Assembly (NCBI GenBank): GCA_964530955.1
Contig: CAZHCL010000004.1
Location: 1-55,264, forward strand
Direction of reading: 5' to 3'
Source: Candidatus Woesearchaeota archaeon
Lineage (GTDB): Archaea > Nanobdellota > Nanobdellia > Pacearchaeales > GW2011-AR1
Length of the DNA: 55,264 nt
Both the position numbers and the translations under genes were made by a program. Below, one piece after another: positions 3 through 32,730 of this stretch (its first letter is position 1; each line of letters opens with the position of its first letter). The notes beneath the pieces are model-generated. The model did no database searches. It had not been told where the DNA came from and saw nothing but the letters and a program-made list of their open reading frames with translations.

Positions 3-821
3 CTTCAAGAGTCAATAAATGCAGTAGGTATTCTCGTTCCATTAATTGTTTATTTTGATGAAAAAAAGAAAAAATATATTCTTTTAGATGGAGAAAGGAG
101 ATTAAGATGTGCAAAATCATTAAAATATAAAACAGTTCCAGCGAATATCATGTCGAAGCCTTCACGATTACAAAATATACTACAAATGTTCAATATTCAT
201 AATGTAAGAATAGAATGGGGACCAATGGAAGTAGCATGGAAAATAAAGACAATTATGGAAGAAGCTGGAACGGAAAAGGAATCAGAATTAGCAAGAATGA
301 CTTCTTTAAAGCCAACAGAAATCAGAAAATCAAAAATATTACTTTCTTTTGATTCTAAATATCAAGAACTTGTACATTTGGGACCTAATAATAACGGAAT
401 AAAACAGGATTTTTTAGTTGAATTAAAACCTACACTTAATTGGTTAGAAAAAGAATTACCTGAGATAAAAAAGAACAAATTAATAGATGTTTTTATTGAA
501 AAACATAAAAATAAAATAATTGACAACTACGTAACTGGTTTTAGAAACTTAAGTAAAGTTGTAAAATCTGGATTAAAGAAGGAAAAAATACGTAGCATCT
601 TCAGAAACTTGATAGAAAAAGCAGATTACTCTTTAGAAGACGCATTTGAAGCATCAGTTAAATATAAAATCGACATAGTAGAAATAGAAAGAAGAACTGA
701 TAAATTACTTAATCTTCTTGGAAAATTAAAGATAAAAAAGAATAGTGATTCAGATAATCTTGTAAGCTTATTAAAACAACTAAGGGAGAGAATAAATATT
801 ATATTGAAAGATGAAAAATGA
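3..821 (+). CDS. ParB/Srx N-terminal domain protein, 5' truncated by the window edge
   Basis: Frame 3 is open from position 3, upstream of the ORF-track Met at 150: LQESINAVGILVPLIVYFDEKKKKYILLDGERRLRCAK, the ParB-type 'G.L.P..V ... DGERR' motif. The C-terminal part is not a typical ParB HTH/dimer region. Confidence 0.8.
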   Translation, partial: LQESINAVGILVPLIVYFDEKKKKYILLDGERRLRCAKSLKYKTVPANIMSKPSRLQNILQMFNIHNVRIEWGPMEVAWKIKTIMEEAGTEKESELARMTSLKPTEIRKSKILLSFDSKYQELVHLGPNNNGIKQDFLVELKPTLNWLEKELPEIKKNKLIDVFIEKHKNKIIDNYVTGFRNLSKVVKSGLKKEKIRSIFRNLIEKADYSLEDAFEASVKYKIDIVEIERRTDKLLNLLGKLKIKKNSDSDNLVSLLKQLRERINIILKDEK

Positions 822-1698
822 AACTAAGAAAGCATTTAAAAACTTTATAAAAGAGAATAATTTTAAATATTTAAAAAAAAGTAAAATATTACCATATATT
901 GATTATGAATTTAGTTTTTATCACAATGATGATGAAACTATAGCAACATATGTTTTAGATATTGAAAGTGAGTCTATACATCCTTTGATTGATGCAACAA
1001 GAACTTGTAGTCTTACAAAATCAACAATTAAAATTTTATTATTCATACCTTCAAGTTGTAATATGCCTGCAGATATAAAAACTAAAATTTATAATACACA
1101 AATAGAAATATACGTTGTAAATGAGGGAATAGCAGAAAGCTATATTAAAGCTTCTGAAATAAAAATGCAAGAAAAAAGTAGACTGAAAAATTTAATGACG
1201 ATTATTAATTCAATTAATATAGCATCTACAAATTATTTGGGTTTAAAATTATTCAAAATAGATAAAAAACTATTTAATAAGTTTAAAATTACTATAGATG
1301 ATGAAGAAGGATTTATTTATCAGATACAAACAATAGTTTCAATAATAGAAAGTCTTGAATATTCAAAAATCAGAGCAGGGTTACCAAAGCTAAAGAAGAA
1401 TGAGTCTACTTTTATTGAAAAAAAACAATCAATATCAGTTATAGAACTAATTTTTAAGAAAAATAAAAGACCAATAGATGCAAAATTTCAACGTGCAATT
1501 AGAGAGTTAAGAAATCTAAGAGATCTCAGAAACATGCCTCCTGCCCACCCTTCATCAACTTATAAAAAGGTTTGCAAGATATATATTGGTAAAAAAATAC
1601 CGAAAACAAAAACTGATTGGAAAAGACTCAGTCAAGTAGCTTTATCTCGTTTTGAAGAAAGTCTTAAAGATTTAAAGGAGTGCATACTCAGAAAATGA
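811..1698 (+). CDS. Hypothetical protein with a C-terminal HEPN-like RxxxxxH motif and a possible degenerate restriction-endonuclease-like N-terminus
   Basis: LRDLRNMPPAH (Rx5H) lies in a helical C-terminal half. The gene overlaps the upstream ParB gene and the downstream MTase (ATGA overlap at 1695-1698). Confidence 0.5.
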   Translation: MKNETKKAFKNFIKENNFKYLKKSKILPYIDYEFSFYHNDDETIATYVLDIESESIHPLIDATRTCSLTKSTIKILLFIPSSCNMPADIKTKIYNTQIEIYVVNEGIAESYIKASEIKMQEKSRLKNLMTIINSINIASTNYLGLKLFKIDKKLFNKFKITIDDEEGFIYQIQTIVSIIESLEYSKIRAGLPKLKKNESTFIEKKQSISVIELIFKKNKRPIDAKFQRAIRELRNLRDLRNMPPAHPSSTYKKVCKIYIGKKIPKTKTDWKRLSQVALSRFEESLKDLKECILRK

Positions 1699-2531
1699 AA
1701 ATTCCTACATTTCTAAAATGGGCTGGTGGAAAAAGAAAATTACTAGAACAAATAGACATTCACTTGCCTATTGAAATTAAAAATTATTTTGAACCATTCT
1801 TAGGTGCAGGTTCAGTCTTTTTCTATATTAAACAGAAGTATAATCCAAAAAAATGTACTATTTCAGATATAAATAAGGATCTAATTAATACTTTTATAGC
1901 AGTTAGAGACAGACCATTGGAATTAATAAAGTATGTTGAAAAGTTGAAAAGTGAAAATAATAAAGAGTTTTATTTAAAAGTAAGATATCTTTTCAATCAA
2001 AATAAAATTACTGGAATAAAGAGATGTGCTACTTTTATTTATCTAAATAAAACTTGTTTTAATGGGTTATATAGGGTGAATAAAGCAGGTGAATTCAACG
2101 TACCTTATGGTAAATATAACAATCCAGAAATAATCAATAAAGAAAATATACTTCTTGCAAGCGAGTTATTGCAAGGTGTCAATATTTTATGTGGTGACTA
2201 CAATATTATTAGAAGTAAAGTAAATGAGAATGATTTTGTTTATCTCGATCCTTGTTACGATCCATTAACTAAAACCAGCTTTGCAAATTATACTCCTGAT
2301 CGCTTCTCTGAAAAAGATAATGATAAATTAGCTAATTTTATTTATGATCTTAAAAATAAGGGGGCAAAAATCTTATTCAGTAATAACGTTACAAATGGTG
2401 TAAAAAGAAGATACCCTCAAAAAGAAGGATTCAAATGGATATTTGTAGAATGTTGTCGTAGTATAAATTCAATAAGTTCAAAACGAGGCAAAATTCAAGA
2501 ACTACTTATAAAAACATATAATCAAAATTGA
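1695..2531 (+). CDS. Dam-family (D12 class) N6-adenine DNA methyltransferase
   Basis: FLKWAGGK, YFEPFLGAGSVF (motif I), FIYLNKTCFNGLYRVN..GEFNVPYG; motif IV reads DPCY. Start placed at ATG 1695, overlapping the upstream TGA. Confidence 0.9.
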   Translation: MKIPTFLKWAGGKRKLLEQIDIHLPIEIKNYFEPFLGAGSVFFYIKQKYNPKKCTISDINKDLINTFIAVRDRPLELIKYVEKLKSENNKEFYLKVRYLFNQNKITGIKRCATFIYLNKTCFNGLYRVNKAGEFNVPYGKYNNPEIINKENILLASELLQGVNILCGDYNIIRSKVNENDFVYLDPCYDPLTKTSFANYTPDRFSEKDNDKLANFIYDLKNKGAKILFSNNVTNGVKRRYPQKEGFKWIFVECCRSINSISSKRGKIQELLIKTYNQN

Positions 2532-2646
2532 GTACAATAATCTATCCACTCAATCTCGACAAAGTTTATAAACTCACGTCGCTAAATTAGATTAGCTAAA
2601 TAATATAATAGCGAAGCGCTCTCACACCGAGACATTAATTGGTCCG

Positions 2647-2662
2647 GGCGTTTCTACTTTTT
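2647..2662 (+). repeat. 16-nt direct repeat copy 1 (GGCGTTTCTACTTTTT), possible att-like site
   Basis: Exact match to 4016-4031; both copies are intergenic. Confidence 0.55.
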
Positions 2663-2728
2663 GTCTATTTTGAGAGATGTACATATTTCATACAAGTGCC
2701 TTAAAAAGAAAAAATAAGTTACATCCAT

Positions 2729-2869
2729 ATGAAAATAGATCCATACAAGCACAAAGAAAAATATCTTAATTGGAAGGAAAAGACCAAAGAGAGCATTGAA
2801 GGTATAAGTGAATTTAATTATAATATCATCAAGCAATACCTTTCAGACATGGAGAAAGGCATTAATTAA
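2729..2869 (+). pseudogene. Probable N-terminal fragment of a DPANN-type tyrosine recombinase/integrase
   Basis: 46-aa ORF not in the track: MKIDPYKHKEKYLNWKEKTKESIEGISEFNYNIIKQYLSDMEKGIN*. From memory it resembles the N-terminus of Pace/Woesearchaeota integrases; no catalytic domain follows. Confidence 0.45.
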
Positions 2870-2958
2870 CAATCAGTTCATCATAAATAGGGCGTTTTTC
2901 ATAAATGTCCCAATTTAAAATTAGAAAGGAATTTAATCAGCAGTTTACCCTCTAGTAT

Positions 2959-3465
2959 ATGAAAAAGAAGGTTGTTGTAAATGATTTGATGCAGAAGAGG
3001 TACGTTTATTTTCTGACAGAACCAGTAGGAAAAAACTTTGATCATGAATTTAATCCAGAACTCACTCCAAAACAGATGCTTGAACTCGGAGTATTTGGTG
3101 GAAAATATATAACTGATTGCAAAGAAGAGTTTCCCAAAGAATGGTTCAAAAAGGCGAAATTGAACCATCAATTTCATGATGCTCAGCTGAATTATTTTAA
3201 AGTTAATGCCTCTCAATCCTTGCAGGTATGGAGAGCTAAAGGATGGATTTACAAGGAAGACCCGCGAGGCTGGTTCCAGTGGTATTGTCGTTATTATATG
3301 GGAAGAAGAATACAAAAAGAAGATAAAAGACAAATAAAGAGATGGAAAGCAATAGTAAGACATATAGGGGCCATAAAGAAAAATTGTAAAAAAGGAGATA
3401 TGAATTGTAGAATAAAAGAAAGACAAGCCTTACTGCACTGGGCTTATGATTCTAGGAAGATTTAG
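2959..3465 (+). CDS. Conserved hypothetical protein (PELTPxxMLxLGVFGGKY / DPRGWFQWYCRY family)
   Basis: Recognisable conserved motifs of a widespread uncharacterised family; intact ORF. Confidence 0.75.
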   Translation: MKKKVVVNDLMQKRYVYFLTEPVGKNFDHEFNPELTPKQMLELGVFGGKYITDCKEEFPKEWFKKAKLNHQFHDAQLNYFKVNASQSLQVWRAKGWIYKEDPRGWFQWYCRYYMGRRIQKEDKRQIKRWKAIVRHIGAIKKNCKKGDMNCRIKERQALLHWAYDSRKI

Positions 3466-3630
3466 AATTTAAAATATCCAGTAACTAAATCCAACAAATT
3501 AATTTGTTAAAGACGTAAAAATGGGACACTTTGTTCTGGGTTCTGATCCGGGATTTTTTGTCGATAACAAATTATTGTTTAACTACTTCAAGATAGAAAT
3601 GTTTAAAATCTAGAGCAAATACCTTTTCTC

Positions 3631-3990
3631 ATGATAAAACAAATAGGAAGACATTTGCTAATGTACGGAGTTCCTTATATGATAATTGGATCCGCATCAT
3701 TTCAACTTGGGCTACAAGATCATAGAAATAGTCAATACCATGATTTGGGAGAGGGTTATAGAGTTAGAGAAACTGCAACTGAGAGAATTTTTGTTTTTGG
3801 AAATGGGCGCTTCGGAGTAGAAGATAAAAAAGAGGGCGGGCTAGATAAAGTTTTAATTAACTTACCTATCTCTCCTATGATGGGTGGTCCAGGATATGTT
3901 CCTTTTAAGGTTAAAACTACCCCTGAAGATATTAAGAATTTTGAGAGAGCAAGTTCTTTACTTAAATCTATGAAAAAAAATCCTAATTAG
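3631..3990 (+). CDS. Hypothetical protein, N-terminal hydrophobic segment
   Basis: Intact ORF preceded by TTTAAAA about 25 nt upstream. Confidence 0.6.
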   Translation: MIKQIGRHLLMYGVPYMIIGSASFQLGLQDHRNSQYHDLGEGYRVRETATERIFVFGNGRFGVEDKKEGGLDKVLINLPISPMMGGPGYVPFKVKTTPEDIKNFERASSLLKSMKKNPN

Positions 3991-5086: not shown

Positions 5087-5206
5087 GCTTCAGAATAAAT
5101 ATTGTGCCTTTAAATATATTTCGATTTGATATAACTTTATAATTAATACACTAAATTTCATTTGAAAAATGTAAGATTTAAATAGCCTTTTCTCCTGACC
5201 TGAAAG

Positions 5207-6868
5207 ATGTTTGAGAAGGGAAAGACACAAAAAAAGAATTTTAATTTATTAGTCTTTACTTTTATTTCCGCCATAATTATTCTTTCTTTGCAGTTTGCTT
5301 CTGCTGCACAATCTGCAGTAGACCTTGGAACTGCTGGTAACTTTGCCATATTAAGTACTTCGGGAATTTCAAATACTGGAACTAGTTCAATAGTTGGAAA
5401 TGTTGGAGCCAATTCTGCCAGCAGCACAATAACAGGTTTTTCTCTAATCAGCGACTCGTCCAATAGATTTTCTACATCCTCTCTAGTTGATGGAAATGTT
5501 TATGCTTCTGACTATTCCTCTCCAACTCCTTCAGTTACTTTCTCTGCGGTTAAAGACATGCAAACAGCTTACGATGATGCAGCTGGTAGAACATCACCCG
5601 ATTTTACTGACCTAAACTCTGGAAATATAGGCGGTATGAATCTACCTGCGGGTCTTTACAAGTGGAATACGGGAGTATCGATTACTTCCGATCTTGTTCT
5701 CTCTGGAAACTCCAGCGATGTATGGATACTTCAGGTGCATGGAAATCTCTTTATGTCATCAGGTACCAACATTATTTTATCAGGAGGAGCACAGGCAAAG
5801 AATGTTTTCTGGCAAGTTAAAGGGCTAACTCTGCTAGGGTCAAGTTCTACTTTCAATGGAAACATATTAGGAAATAACCAAATAGTCTTTGATACTGGTT
5901 CAACATTAAACGGAAGAGCTTTAGCTCTATCATCAGTTAGTCTAAAATCTGATACTCTTACCTCTCCTAACAAAAATGATTTCCAATCACCAATAACAAT
6001 TGCTACAAATGTTGGAAACAGTTGGACAAACTCCGATTATAATGTGACTCTAAACGCAACCTCATTCAATAATACCTATATTTACCAAATAATCTATTCA
6101 TTAAATAACATTTCTGGACAGATAAATGGAAGTTCTGGAAATATATTGATAAATGTGAGCGGAAACAATACACTTACTTTTTACGCTGTTGATAGCTTCA
6201 GTCATTCAGAGGTATTAAAGACAGTTTATCCTCTTCTTGATGAAATAGCACCTAATATAACTTCATTTAATCTTTCATCTTCAAGTGTAAATGTTGGAGG
6301 AGTTATCACCTCATCGTGCATTGCTACTGACAATGTTGATTCTAATGTCAGTATTAATGTAACTGGAATAGATATCTCTGTAGCTGGAAATTACACTGCA
6401 AACTGCACGGCAACAGACTTTGCTGGCAACACAGCAGTTGCTTATGCAAATTATACTGTAACAACCCCCACACCAACTTCAACATCTAATGGAAATAGCG
6501 GCGGTGGAGGCGGAGGAAGTCAGTGTTTAACAAATTGGACTTGCTCAGATTGGTCAGTATGTTCAAACAACATACAGACAAGAACTTGCAATAGAATAAG
6601 ATCCTACTGCTATGCTGGAGCTCAGCCTGCTCTGAATCAGACTTGCACTATCCCTGTAAATTCTCAGAATAATAATGAATCCAACTCTGGAGCAAGCACT
6701 TCTGCAACCTCAAGTGGATCCAATGGCGCAGGTGCGGGAATAACTGGAGCAGTAACTGGTGCTTTGAAAAATGCTGGAATAAATTCAACAGTCCTTGCAG
6801 TAATTGTATTGATTGGAGTGGGCATATATGCCTTTGTTGTTCTGGCAGTAAAACCAAGAGCTATTTAG
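5207..6868 (+). CDS. Secreted, membrane-anchored DUF3494 (ice-binding-like) protein with Ig-like stalk, Cys-rich TSP1-like module and C-terminal TM (paralog 1)
   Basis: Signal peptide; VDLGTAGNFAILS, DMQTAYDDAAGR, GGAQAKNVFWQV, LNGRALA (DUF3494); CxxxWTCSDWSVC module; hydrophobic C-terminus. Confidence 0.9.
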   Translation: MFEKGKTQKKNFNLLVFTFISAIIILSLQFASAAQSAVDLGTAGNFAILSTSGISNTGTSSIVGNVGANSASSTITGFSLISDSSNRFSTSSLVDGNVYASDYSSPTPSVTFSAVKDMQTAYDDAAGRTSPDFTDLNSGNIGGMNLPAGLYKWNTGVSITSDLVLSGNSSDVWILQVHGNLFMSSGTNIILSGGAQAKNVFWQVKGLTLLGSSSTFNGNILGNNQIVFDTGSTLNGRALALSSVSLKSDTLTSPNKNDFQSPITIATNVGNSWTNSDYNVTLNATSFNNTYIYQIIYSLNNISGQINGSSGNILINVSGNNTLTFYAVDSFSHSEVLKTVYPLLDEIAPNITSFNLSSSSVNVGGVITSSCIATDNVDSNVSINVTGIDISVAGNYTANCTATDFAGNTAVAYANYTVTTPTPTSTSNGNSGGGGGGSQCLTNWTCSDWSVCSNNIQTRTCNRIRSYCYAGAQPALNQTCTIPVNSQNNNESNSGASTSATSSGSNGAGAGITGAVTGALKNAGINSTVLAVIVLIGVGIYAFVVLAVKPRAI

Positions 6869-30323: not shown

Positions 30324-30686
30324 TTACTTTCTCTGAACATAATTTCCTTTAGGATTTTGGTAAAATATTGATCCTCTAAAAGCTTCCCCTTCTTTAAATA
30401 AAGGTGATTGATAAGCCTGATTAAGTATGGCTGAGAGCTCATCTGCAGTTTTTCTGTTAGTGTCATTTGGAATTTCAGCCTTTAGATAATACCTAACATT
30501 CGCTTCTCTGGCTTCTTGAACCATTCCTTCTTTTAAGAATAATTCTAGATTTGACGGAGAGTTTACTGCATGTCTTAGATGAGGAAGCTCATCTTGAATC
30601 TGTTGATAAGAAGAAGAGCAATGAAAGAAAGCATATGCCTCGCCCTTCCCACCTTTTTTATCTTTTATCATATTAATTATAGGCAT
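30324..30686 (-). CDS. Hypothetical protein
   Basis: Intact 120-aa ORF. Confidence 0.6.
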   Translation of the reverse strand: MPIINMIKDKKGGKGEAYAFFHCSSSYQQIQDELPHLRHAVNSPSNLELFLKEGMVQEAREANVRYYLKAEIPNDTNRKTADELSAILNQAYQSPLFKEGEAFRGSIFYQNPKGNYVQRK

Positions 30687-30815: not shown

Positions 30816-30968
30816 TTATCTTCTTTTCTTCTTCTTAGAATGCCTAGACCTTGCAAGCCAAGATTTCAACTTTCTAATCTTAGAAGCCTTACTCTTACCG
30901 CTTGCAGATCTTCCCTTCTTAGAAGCAACTTTAGTCTTCTTTGCACTTCTTGTTTTCTTTTTTGCCAT
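30816..30968 (-). CDS. 50-aa K/R-rich basic peptide, not in the ORF track
   Basis: MAKKKTRSAKKTKVASKKGRSASGKSKASKIRKLKSWLARSRHSKKKKRR*; 24 of 50 residues are K/R and none are acidic. Confidence 0.7.
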   Translation of the reverse strand: MAKKKTRSAKKTKVASKKGRSASGKSKASKIRKLKSWLARSRHSKKKKRR

Positions 30969-30979
30969 TTATGAATATA

Positions 30980-31204
30980 GCTGGTATCTCGGACTCAGTG
31001 AAGAAAGTTCCTTAAACACTCCCCTGAACAAATCTTGACCTGTTGGTGCGCTTTAAAGGTTATCTTCTTCGCTCTTGATGACAAGCTTAACATGTGTAGG
31101 TTTCATATAGTGAGTTATAGTCCGATCACCATACTAATAGTCGCACACATGACAGAGGCAGCATCAGTAGCATCCTTTCCAGGACAACTGCTAATGACAC
31201 CAGC
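30980..31204 (-). ncRNA. Candidate structured non-coding RNA of unknown family (~225 nt)
   Basis: Terminal 9-bp helix GCUGGUGUC/GAUACCAGC; GGAA-capped hairpin; interleaved helices CAUGUGU/ACACAUG and UCGGACU/AGUCCGA; 44% GC by hand count; G-U pairs favour the minus strand. Confidence 0.65.
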
Positions 31205-31225
31205 AAATATAGATGCTAAAATATG

Positions 31226-31236
31226 CTTATATATTT
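31226..31236 (-). promoter_or_regulatory. TATA box for the candidate ncRNA/basic-peptide unit
   Basis: Minus-strand AAATATATAAG lies 22-32 nt upstream of the first base of the terminal helix, which is archaeal spacing. Confidence 0.55.
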
Positions 31237-31272
31237 GATTGGCTACTATAAAATTACAGCATTTAGCTAAAT

Positions 31273-31947
31273 TCAATAAGCTTGTTTCAATACATCAAGT
31301 ATATCTTTATCAAGAGTAGGACACCCTCCGCCTATAGCAGTCATAATGCTCTTCGCCTTTGTTGTATGCCCAAATCCAAGAGTATGCAATAGCTCATGTA
31401 TCTCAGTATCTGGATAAATTAAACATCCTCCAGGATAATTATGAGAAAGTTCATTTACTTTATTGAAATTAATTACTGCAGAGACTATTTTATTATCTGC
31501 AAAGATTGGAAGAGCGTTACCTGATTCAAAAGTTCCAGAAGTAGAGCCAGCAACATAATTTCTGTTACACATTACGCTTATATCTGCACTTCCATTGACT
31601 TCAGTAAAATTAACTGCATAATCAGTATCATTAGCTATAATATTTGTTGCTCTTCTTATTCTGTTTCCTTCATAGTTGCCACAATCAGAGGTTATGTTGA
31701 ATGAAATAGGCATATGATCCCAAGTAAATAAACTAGAACCTGTTAAGAATGTTCCTCCATTCTTAATCCAGTCTGAATTAGTGAAAGAATTATCCTGTGC
31801 ATTTGTAGTTTGATTTGCATTAACTAAAGAATCACTTCCAGTAGAAGAGTTATTTTTACCTTTATTTATTGTTTCAAAATAAAGCACAGCAGATAATATT
31901 AAAATAAAGACTAACAAAAATGTTAAGTATTTCCAAACCCCTTTCAT
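31273..31947 (-). CDS. Membrane-anchored matrixin/metzincin metalloprotease
   Basis: HELLHTLGFGH (HExxHxxGxxH) plus SIM Met-turn; N-terminal TM. Confidence 0.88.
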   Translation of the reverse strand: MKGVWKYLTFLLVFILILSAVLYFETINKGKNNSSTGSDSLVNANQTTNAQDNSFTNSDWIKNGGTFLTGSSLFTWDHMPISFNITSDCGNYEGNRIRRATNIIANDTDYAVNFTEVNGSADISVMCNRNYVAGSTSGTFESGNALPIFADNKIVSAVINFNKVNELSHNYPGGCLIYPDTEIHELLHTLGFGHTTKAKSIMTAIGGGCPTLDKDILDVLKQAY

Positions 31948-32577: not shown

Positions 32578-32730
32578 TCCCCTCACCGAGAGTCGAACTT
32601 GGGTGTTCCGGGTTCTGTCACTTGCTTGTAACCAAGCAGGTCCTGTCACGCTTCATCCTTTTCCCGTTCGGGAATGTCTGCGCTAGGCAATTGCCTACAG
32701 CCGGACGCTCTACCGTTGAGCTATGAGGGG
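32578..32730 (-). tRNA. tRNA-Tyr(GTA) with an 82-nt intron at 37/38 (intron 32694-32613)
   Basis: CCCCTCA/TGAGGGG acceptor stem + A73; GCTC/GAGC D stem; TCCGG/CCGGA anticodon stem; CT-GTA-G loop; TTCGACT T loop; BHB CTGT/ACAG. Confidence 0.92.

Follow-up and report, generated by a model that had tools for sequence, protein, structure and literature searches.

A spacer of some 300 nt in contig CAZHCL010000004.1 of Candidatus Woesearchaeota archaeon (assembly GCA_964530955.1; positions 1-55,264, the whole stretch being called the window hereafter) appears empty, which raises the question of what it encodes. It is bounded by a gene for a 224-aa metalloprotease-like protein (31947-31273, minus strand) and by an open reading frame (ORF) for a 50-aa lysine-rich protein (30968-30816, minus strand). 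An initial annotation, made from the letters of the DNA, had proposed here a pseudoknot-capable RNA with its own TATA box. Our analysis indicates that the minus strand from 31204 to 30980 (225 nt) specifies a real RNA, with a conserved fold that is supported by covariation and contains two pseudoknots, and that this RNA is followed in essentially all loci by a gene for a small basic protein, called the mini-protein below.

The window sequence by itself proves little. The GC content of 31204-30980 is 0.44 vs 0.34 in the window, in agreement with the contrast drawn in the initial annotation (44% in AT-rich surroundings), and all the strands which that annotation quoted lie where it had placed them. 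Perfect helices of at least 7 bp number 2, with 1.3 expected from dinucleotide shuffles, and those of at least 6 bp number 4, with 5.1 expected. The z-score of the minimum free energy is -1.93 on the minus strand, where 13 of 200 shuffles fold equally well, and -0.23 on the plus strand. The helices of this single copy are not above chance, and the support for the RNA derives from its homologues.

Homologues had to be sought away from the closest relatives. The contigs of near-identical strains, which carry the flanking proteins (L001-L014), are 99.7-100% identical and hence useless for covariation. The RNA was found neither beside the 34-43% identical homologues of the upstream metalloprotease-like gene nor adjoining the homologues of a neighbouring gene for a 120-aa protein. 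Using an alignment of this 120-aa family, we fetched 64 loci from GTDB genomes, with names such as Woesearchaeota, Pacearchaeota, Nanoarchaeota, and similar; the best identity was 48%, and we therefore place the window in that group. A search of these loci with nhmmer and the window RNA matched two of them, L062 and L031 (E=2e-20 and 6e-19). Their RNA copies sit 6-9 kb from the 120-aa anchor gene and are thus non-syntenic. We then scanned metagenomes with the pattern GGACTATAACTCA N{90,120} TTCACNGAGTCC, whose 24 fixed bases form blocks that are invariant in the first three sequences. At least 120 metagenome stretches fit it, and among the matches listed 124 nhmmer hits came down to 106 distinct homologues, which share 55-73% identity with the window RNA. 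The same pattern had no match in viral contigs. Together with the window copy, the homologues make up an alignment of 107 sequences, short flanks included (A4). In all, searches across loci of DPANN archaea did return homologues, and the pair formed by the RNA and the lysine-rich ORF recurs in more than 100 contigs of DPANN-type archaea, the named ones being Woesearchaeota-type.

A few loci depart from the usual arrangement of one RNA before one ORF. In locus L126, the RNA occurs twice in tandem within 46-491, and the lysine-rich ORF follows the second copy only. Besides its full copy, L103 has a partial one (the 5' ~145 nt; 5148-5288) that is followed by an unrelated membrane-protein ORF. In L108 (297-6297), the RNA (515-297) immediately follows the terminator of a 16S-tRNA-23S unit, a possible site for a 5S gene.

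The helices were located by mutual information and written as a structure of 67 pairs on A4. Standard pairs occupy 93.1% of the cells of this structure, compared with 83.7% in column shuffles and 33-43% when the 3' partners are slid by 1-3 columns. Changes on both sides of a pair, i.e., compensatory ones, are seen in 50 of the 67 pairs, and none of 500 shuffles reached the observed value for any of the measures. RNAalifold independently recovers the nested helices P2-P7. In the resulting fold, P1 closes a tight four-way junction in which P2, the GNRA hairpin P3, P4 (leading on to P5 and P6), and P7 converge. Two pseudoknots, PK1 and PK2, lock this arrangement, and about 60 nucleotides are conserved and unpaired. 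The elements map to the window copy as follows, the upper part of P4 having been adjusted by reading the window sequence.

30980-31204, minus strand: structured RNA, 5' part of the transcript
31196-31204, minus strand: P1 5' strand, GCUGGUGUC, pairing with 30980-30988
30980-30988, minus strand: P1 3' strand, GAUACCAGC, immediately adjacent to the PK1 3' strand
31187-31190, minus strand: P2 5' strand, CAGU, pairing with 30996-30999
30996-30999, minus strand: P2 3' strand, ACUG
31173-31184, minus strand: P3 hairpin, UCCU/AGGA (31184-31181 with 31176-31173), with a GGAA loop of the GNRA type at 31177-31180
31162-31172, minus strand: P4 5' strand, GCU..UGAUG, pairing with CAUCA..AGC at 31070-31080
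31070-31080, minus strand: P4 3' strand
31145-31151, minus strand: P5 5' strand, CAUGUGU, pairing with 31091-31097
31091-31097, minus strand: P5 3' strand, ACACAUG
31106-31133, minus strand: P6 hairpin of 7 bp (31133-31127 with 31112-31106), with a 14-nt loop, L6, at 31113-31126
31119-31125, minus strand: PK1 5' strand, UCGGACU, in loop L6
30989-30995, minus strand: PK1 3' strand, AGUCCGA, between the 3' strands of P2 and P1
31098-31101, minus strand: PK2 5' strand, ACCU, at the P6/P5 junction
31038-31041, minus strand: PK2 3' strand, AGGU, in the apical loop of P7
31001-31069, minus strand: P7, a long arm of three sub-helices with internal loops, GAAGAAG..CCUUUAAA.. / ..UUUAAGG..CUUUCUUC

The initial annotation had predicted a pseudoknot from the interleaving of two helices, X and Y, and both covary in A4. 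Helix X is P5, which is 93.7% paired and has compensatory changes in 7 of 7 pairs. Helix Y is PK1, which is 99.7% paired. The invariance of the PK1 core is partly due to the search pattern, which fixed it, and the covariation is found in the two outer pairs, both of which lay outside the pattern: they read CU/AG, UC/GA, AC/GU, or UU/AA, with counts of CG:97, AU:4, UA:3 for one and UA:102, CG:5 for the other. PK2 was not part of the initial annotation; it is 96.2% paired, and its column pair 127-192 is UA in 87 sequences and CG in 14. P2 is 100% paired (columns 33-241, GC:95, AU:11), P3 98.8%, with GAAA or GGAA as its loop in the homologues, and P6 96.9%, with 5 compensatory pairs. P4 has compensatory changes in 8 of 9 pairs; by reading against A4, a 2x2 internal loop in the window copy takes the place of a 1-nt bulge seen in most homologues. 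One strain variant falls in its 3' strand, C>A at 31071 (L001, L003, and L007), and would break the G-C pair 31171-31071. The sub-helices of P7, which correspond to the long arm already described in the initial annotation, are 91-97% paired, with compensatory changes in 15 of 19 pairs.

The terminal helix GCUGGUGUC/GAUACCAGC also held up. The position and sequence of P1 vary among the homologues, GCUGAC/GUCAGC being commonest; a terminal helix of at least 5 bp can be found in 103 of the 107 sequences, although some of those in AT-rich flanks are likely spurious, and it begins at most 3 nt from PK1 in 68 of the 107. Other proposals have to be revised. A 33-nt hairpin survives in its apical 4 bp with the GGAA loop, i.e., as P3, and its lower stem is unsupported because CAGU joins P2 and GCU..UGAUG joins P4. 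A CUUG-UCAU-CAAG hairpin has to be abandoned since its 3' half is a strand of P4; its strands belong to other helices. Finally, G-U pairs are frequent in the covarying columns (e.g., UG:46 in 52-158 and UG:35 in 125-194), which identifies the minus strand as the RNA strand, as had been argued initially from the G-U pairs of the window copy.

Where the transcript starts and how far it extends can be judged from the flanks. Two features of the window are relevant here:

31226-31236, minus strand: TATA box, AAATATATAAG, its centre about 27 nt upstream of the RNA 5' end
30816-30968, minus strand: Lys/Arg-rich 50-aa ORF, MAKKKTRSAKK...GRSASGKSKASKIRKLKSWLARS..., its start codon 11 nt after P1

TATA-like hexamers cluster 43-47 nt before a CGGUUG anchor, about 26 nt before P1, in an analysis of 105 sequences, and a purine-rich tract resembling a B recognition element (BRE) is often found upstream of them. 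This pile-up agrees with the start at about 31204 that had been derived from the TATA box of the window, and points to a TATA/BRE promoter which would start the minus-strand transcript at about that position. Downstream, a Lys/Arg-rich ORF of 40-75 aa is found in essentially every homologous locus, the apparent exceptions being a GTG start (L111) and a frameshifted assembly (L203); no other neighbouring gene is conserved among the homologous loci. The distance from GAGUCC to the ATG has a median of 28 nt, and the gap between the 3' end of the fold and the start codon is 0-30 nt. Among 95 loci, the spacer between RNA and ORF has a run of at least five T in only 12 and a GGUG or GGAG resembling a Shine-Dalgarno (SD) sequence in 40; many loci, the window included, have no SD. 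Given the linkage to the ORF, the short spacing, and the scarcity of T-runs, RNA and ORF are most probably parts of one transcript, which most likely continues, usually without a terminator, from the RNA into the ORF.

The 50-aa ORF of the window has a codon score of +0.27 per codon. The consensus of the mini-protein family is GRxPSxKSKxSKVxKLIKLAK (K is also seen at the last x), around an invariant core R-x2-S-x3-K-x2-K-x2-K. Profile searches of Pfam, NCBIfam, PDB, PHROGs, and PADLOC gave no match to the family. In L031, a ribosomal protein L41e-like ORF (MKRSSRRWKKKRQMRWKW..., 263-370, minus in the locus) comes directly after the lysine-rich ORF; this arrangement is found in one genome only (L031, L089) and in none of the other loci checked.

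Does the RNA belong to a known family? At the gathering score, Rfam 15 had no match to it across the window. At relaxed thresholds (E<=1 for the whole window, E<=10 for the region), we obtained chance matches only (Afu_190, DLEU2_3, and a tmRNA fragment), and at E<=10 no family matched the RNA in 20 homologous loci. The initial annotation had likewise failed to place it with signal recognition particle (SRP) RNA, RNase P RNA, tmRNA, group I introns, or riboswitches, and no significant match to any of these came up. We found no description of the RNA or of the peptide in the literature, though unsurveyed papers could hold one. The comparisons thus suggest a previously uncatalogued RNA family that no Rfam 15 family describes. 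Several simpler identities were also discarded. Known riboswitch classes (e.g., cobalamin RF00174 and lysine RF00168) gave no match at E<=10, and the only gene associated with the RNA is that of the mini-protein, with no family of ligand-metabolism genes. When introns are allowed, ARAGORN finds only a tRNA-Tyr at 32578-32730. The match to the C/D box small RNA Afu_190 is at chance level (14.9 bits, E=2). As for mimicry of rRNA, the 16S and 23S rRNA of L108 contained none of eight motifs taken from the RNA, and the only near-match in the 23S rRNA of L047 has 9 nt (TGTAAGCTT).

The reading that we favour, and to which we give about an even chance, is that of a single functional unit made up of the RNA and the mini-protein, a ribonucleoprotein. 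The basic protein would bind the RNA, and its charge neutralisation would help the double-pseudoknot core to fold and stay folded, rather in the manner of the small, basic protein of bacterial RNase P. The same contact would feed back on the synthesis of the mini-protein because the binding site lies on its own mRNA, so that autoregulation would be a by-product. The principal functional part is probably the RNA, which surpasses the ORF in both size and conservation: it has 225 nt vs about 150 nt, and the mean column identity is 68% in A4 (short flanks included and part of it fixed by the search pattern) vs 36% in the protein. These differences, together with the ~60 conserved unpaired nucleotides, the GNRA loop, and the two tertiary pairings, are the grounds for favouring a ribonucleoprotein; such features are those of ribozymes and of the RNAs in ribonucleoproteins, not of simple operator sites. 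A novel non-coding RNA, possibly acting with the basic peptide, had also been suggested in the initial annotation, and the covarying fold, the linked peptide gene, and the lack of an Rfam family are all in line with it. A bolder version is tentative, and we would sooner doubt it: a new class of archaeal ribonucleoprotein, specific to archaea of the Woesearchaeota/Pacearchaeota type, in which a possibly catalytic RNA encodes its own lysine-rich cofactor of ~50 aa on the same transcript and acts in trans on a cellular or host target.

Several points weigh against a ribonucleoprotein. The contact between RNA and protein is deduced from gene linkage and protein charge alone, and a constant placement in the 5' untranslated region (UTR) of one gene would also be expected of a purely cis-acting regulator. 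The search pattern fixes L6 and the strand made up of P2' and PK1', so that the invariance there is partly a matter of ascertainment, and the homologue set leaves out members more divergent than the pattern. One of the strain variants, G>A at 30990 (L009), would turn a C-G pair of PK1 into C-A; the partner strand is off that contig. Lastly, a word-indexed search of 5.8 billion proteins with the window peptide found only the peptide itself.

A purely cis-acting leader that controls the mini-protein, through autoregulation by the protein or as a riboswitch for a metabolite or ion, is a genuine possibility that we nevertheless consider unlikely. In its favour is the constant position of the RNA in the 5' UTR of one and the same gene, close to the ORF and seldom separated from it by a terminator. 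Moreover, a GGAYA motif between P1 and P2 in 82 of the 107 sequences duplicates the sequence of L6 and is able to pair with the GUCC that is invariant in PK1, so that there are two folds that exclude each other; the leader could thus switch between PK1 and an alternative rod P1-GGAY:GUCC-P2. By reading, the RNA contains UCACC tracts with complementarity to the GGUGA SD often found downstream. However, GGAYA is missing in the window, L175, L128, L180, L161, and L136 while PK1 still covaries there, P1 is clear of the SD and start codon in most loci, and the RNA would be larger and more conserved than the ORF that it regulates. Known riboswitch classes usually govern several gene families linked to their ligand, here replaced by one tiny basic protein. 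We regard as improbable a further alternative, in which a self-processing ribozyme 5' of the ORF cleaves or branches near its own 3' end and frees a leaderless or short-leader mRNA. The complex pseudoknotted core with many invariant unpaired nucleotides would suit it, as would the 3' end of the fold within 30 nt of the start codon and the many loci without SD; translation of leaderless mRNAs is efficient in archaea. Group I ribozymes are present in these lineages, since RF00028 detects a group I intron in the 23S rRNA of L108 (2055-2352, 60.2 bits). The lariat-capping ribozyme GIR1, which acts for a homing-endonuclease mRNA, is also a double-pseudoknotted RNA of ~190-230 nt with its 3' end just upstream of an ORF. 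But no ribozyme family of Rfam matched at E<=10, RF00028 (group I) and RF01807 (GIR1) included, we identified no conserved candidate cleavage site, the order of the helices differs from the group I/GIR1 core (P3-P7 with a P4-P6 domain), and the RNA, with a promoter of its own, does not lie inside an intron of a host gene.

The initial annotation had left room for a highly divergent housekeeping RNA of the lineage, RNase P or SRP RNA, and this we now hold to be very unlikely. In RNase P RNA, P1, P2, and P3 are followed by a long-range P4, the 3' strand of which falls between P2' and P1'. The new RNA resembles it in its paired ends, in the 5'-P1-P2-P3...P2'-(3' strand of a long-range helix, here PK1)-P1'-3' order, in the AGUCC of that strand, which is like conserved region I (CR-I) of RNase P RNA, and in its small, very basic protein partner, which recalls bacterial RnpA. 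The TATA spacing of the tRNA-Tyr gene in the window, suggestive of a leaderless tRNA transcript, may be counted on the same side. On the other hand, the Rfam models of archaeal RNase P RNA (RF00373; type T, RF02357) had no match at the gathering score or at E<=10, nor had that of archaeal SRP (7S) RNA (RF01857) at E<=10, in the window and the 20 homologues. By reading, the A4 consensus contains neither CR-I (GGAAAGUCC after P3, the 5' strand of P4) nor CR-V (ACAGAA..GGCUUA, the 3' strand of P4), and the RNA has no specificity domain. A regular-expression scan of the loci and the window gave single near-matches to CR-I or CR-V, the two occurring on one strand only in L047, ~290 nt apart. In the new RNA, AGUCC is found only on the PK1 3' strand, the opposite strand of the helix from that in RNase P RNA, and the 5' partner sits in hairpin loop L6, separated from P3 by P4-P5-P6. 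The mini-protein, with 40-75 aa, has no RnpA, Pop5, or Rpp signature. The consensus also reads without the SRP helix 8 AGG/AGCA loop and without a helix 5 rod; its single GNRA hairpin, P3, is flanked by UG/UG. An Rfam scan with the same tool detected a canonical archaeal RNase P RNA (115.6 bits) in L047, a DPANN relative. A replacement of 5S rRNA is disfavoured as well, since a preprint (10.64898/2026.05.13.725050) that covers 208 complete genomes of Nanobdellota reports standard 5S rRNA in 203 of them. The resemblance to RNase P is, as far as such a comparison goes, one of analogy and not of membership.

There is next to no chance that the spacer holds no RNA gene at all and owes its appearance to small ORFs or to chance structure in a long spacer. 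The two ORFs that would be concerned are the following:

31115-31276, minus strand: 53-aa ORF, TTG start, extending over the 5' third of the RNA, with a TTGA overlap with the stop of the upstream gene
30995-31093, minus strand: 32-aa ORF, codon score -0.14 per codon

The 53-aa ORF scores +0.20 per codon, in the range of real genes, and its overlap with the upstream stop is of the kind seen in translational coupling. It was dropped as a gene because its frame is not conserved: 86 of the 107 sequences have in-frame stops, and the lengths of the segment modulo 3 split 58/34/15. No homologue was found among 1.84 billion representative proteins. As its frame is not conserved in homologues, this ORF is an artefact of the composition of the RNA. 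More generally, indels in the alignment are not multiples of three, and substitutions preserve base pairs, not codons.

Other known systems offer partial parallels to a ribonucleoprotein encoded by one transcript. In IscB/IsrB with their omega-RNA, in retrons, where the msr-msd RNA accompanies a reverse transcriptase (RT), and in DRT2, whose non-coding RNA is likewise associated with an RT, the RNA lies directly 5' of the ORF of its partner. The arrangement described here is similar, with a structured and pseudoknotted RNA of ~200 nt immediately upstream of a constant partner and presumably co-transcribed with it, but the partner is a 50-aa lysine-rich peptide without enzymatic domain, and there are no transposon ends, defence neighbours, PADLOC or PHROG matches, or matches in viral contigs. 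The autoregulatory leaders of bacterial S15 and L20 and the k-turn 5' UTR bound by archaeal L7Ae (PMC5539422) share with it a structured 5' UTR, a small basic protein, and a pseudoknot. Unlike these short and simple mimics of rRNA sites, the new RNA has 225 nt, seven helices, and two pseudoknots, and the mini-protein is not a recognised ribosomal protein. In size, sequence conservation, pseudoknots, discovery by comparative genomics, and orphan biochemistry, it is comparable to OLE, raiA, ROOL, GOLLD, and HEARO. These are from bacteria or phages, whereas the new RNA was found only in DPANN-type archaeal contigs and is joined to a mini-protein gene.

Two further genes in the vicinity were used or encountered in the analysis:

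32578-32730, minus strand: tRNA-Tyr(GTA), its anticodon loop interrupted by an 82-nt intron
30324-30686, minus strand: 120-aa conserved hypothetical protein, with an invariant ...LNQAYQS.L... motif

The tRNA-Tyr gene, the only tRNA gene in the 55-kb window, was missed by default ARAGORN and by Rfam. Its 5' end is preceded, at 23-30 nt, by a TATA-like TTTAAAAA, which is why the tRNA is possibly transcribed without a leader. The 120-aa family has no Pfam domain, and its matches come almost entirely from DPANN-type metagenome-assembled genomes (MAGs); some members have an N-terminal extension of 30-45 aa. Its gene is close to an MMR_HSR1-type GTPase gene in L023 and in the window. In L047, a GTDB MAG labelled "bacterium" (JAIOTG010000093.1), evidently wrongly, the stretch 216-3975 carries side by side an archaeal 23S rRNA (216-3138), a gene of the 120-aa family (3199-3573), and the RNase P RNA (3629-3975). 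On contigs that carry the new RNA, about 290 kb of loci yielded neither an RNase P nor an SRP RNA.

To our knowledge, large and intricately folded RNA classes of orphan function are rare, and almost all known ones are bacterial. The genomes of DPANN archaea are tiny, and most of the elements that they retain are thought to be needed. The RNA described here is widespread in these archaea and has a one-to-one association with a mini-protein that is frequently overlooked by standard gene callers. Should the two prove to be a ribonucleoprotein, archaeal biology would gain a new RNA-based machine, and one small enough (225 nt and 50 aa) for structural and biochemical study. Should the RNA be a regulatory leader instead, no leader known in Archaea would come near it in elaborateness. 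In both cases, an "empty" spacer of 300 nt gives way to an RNA family ready for a covariance model and to a named family of small proteins.

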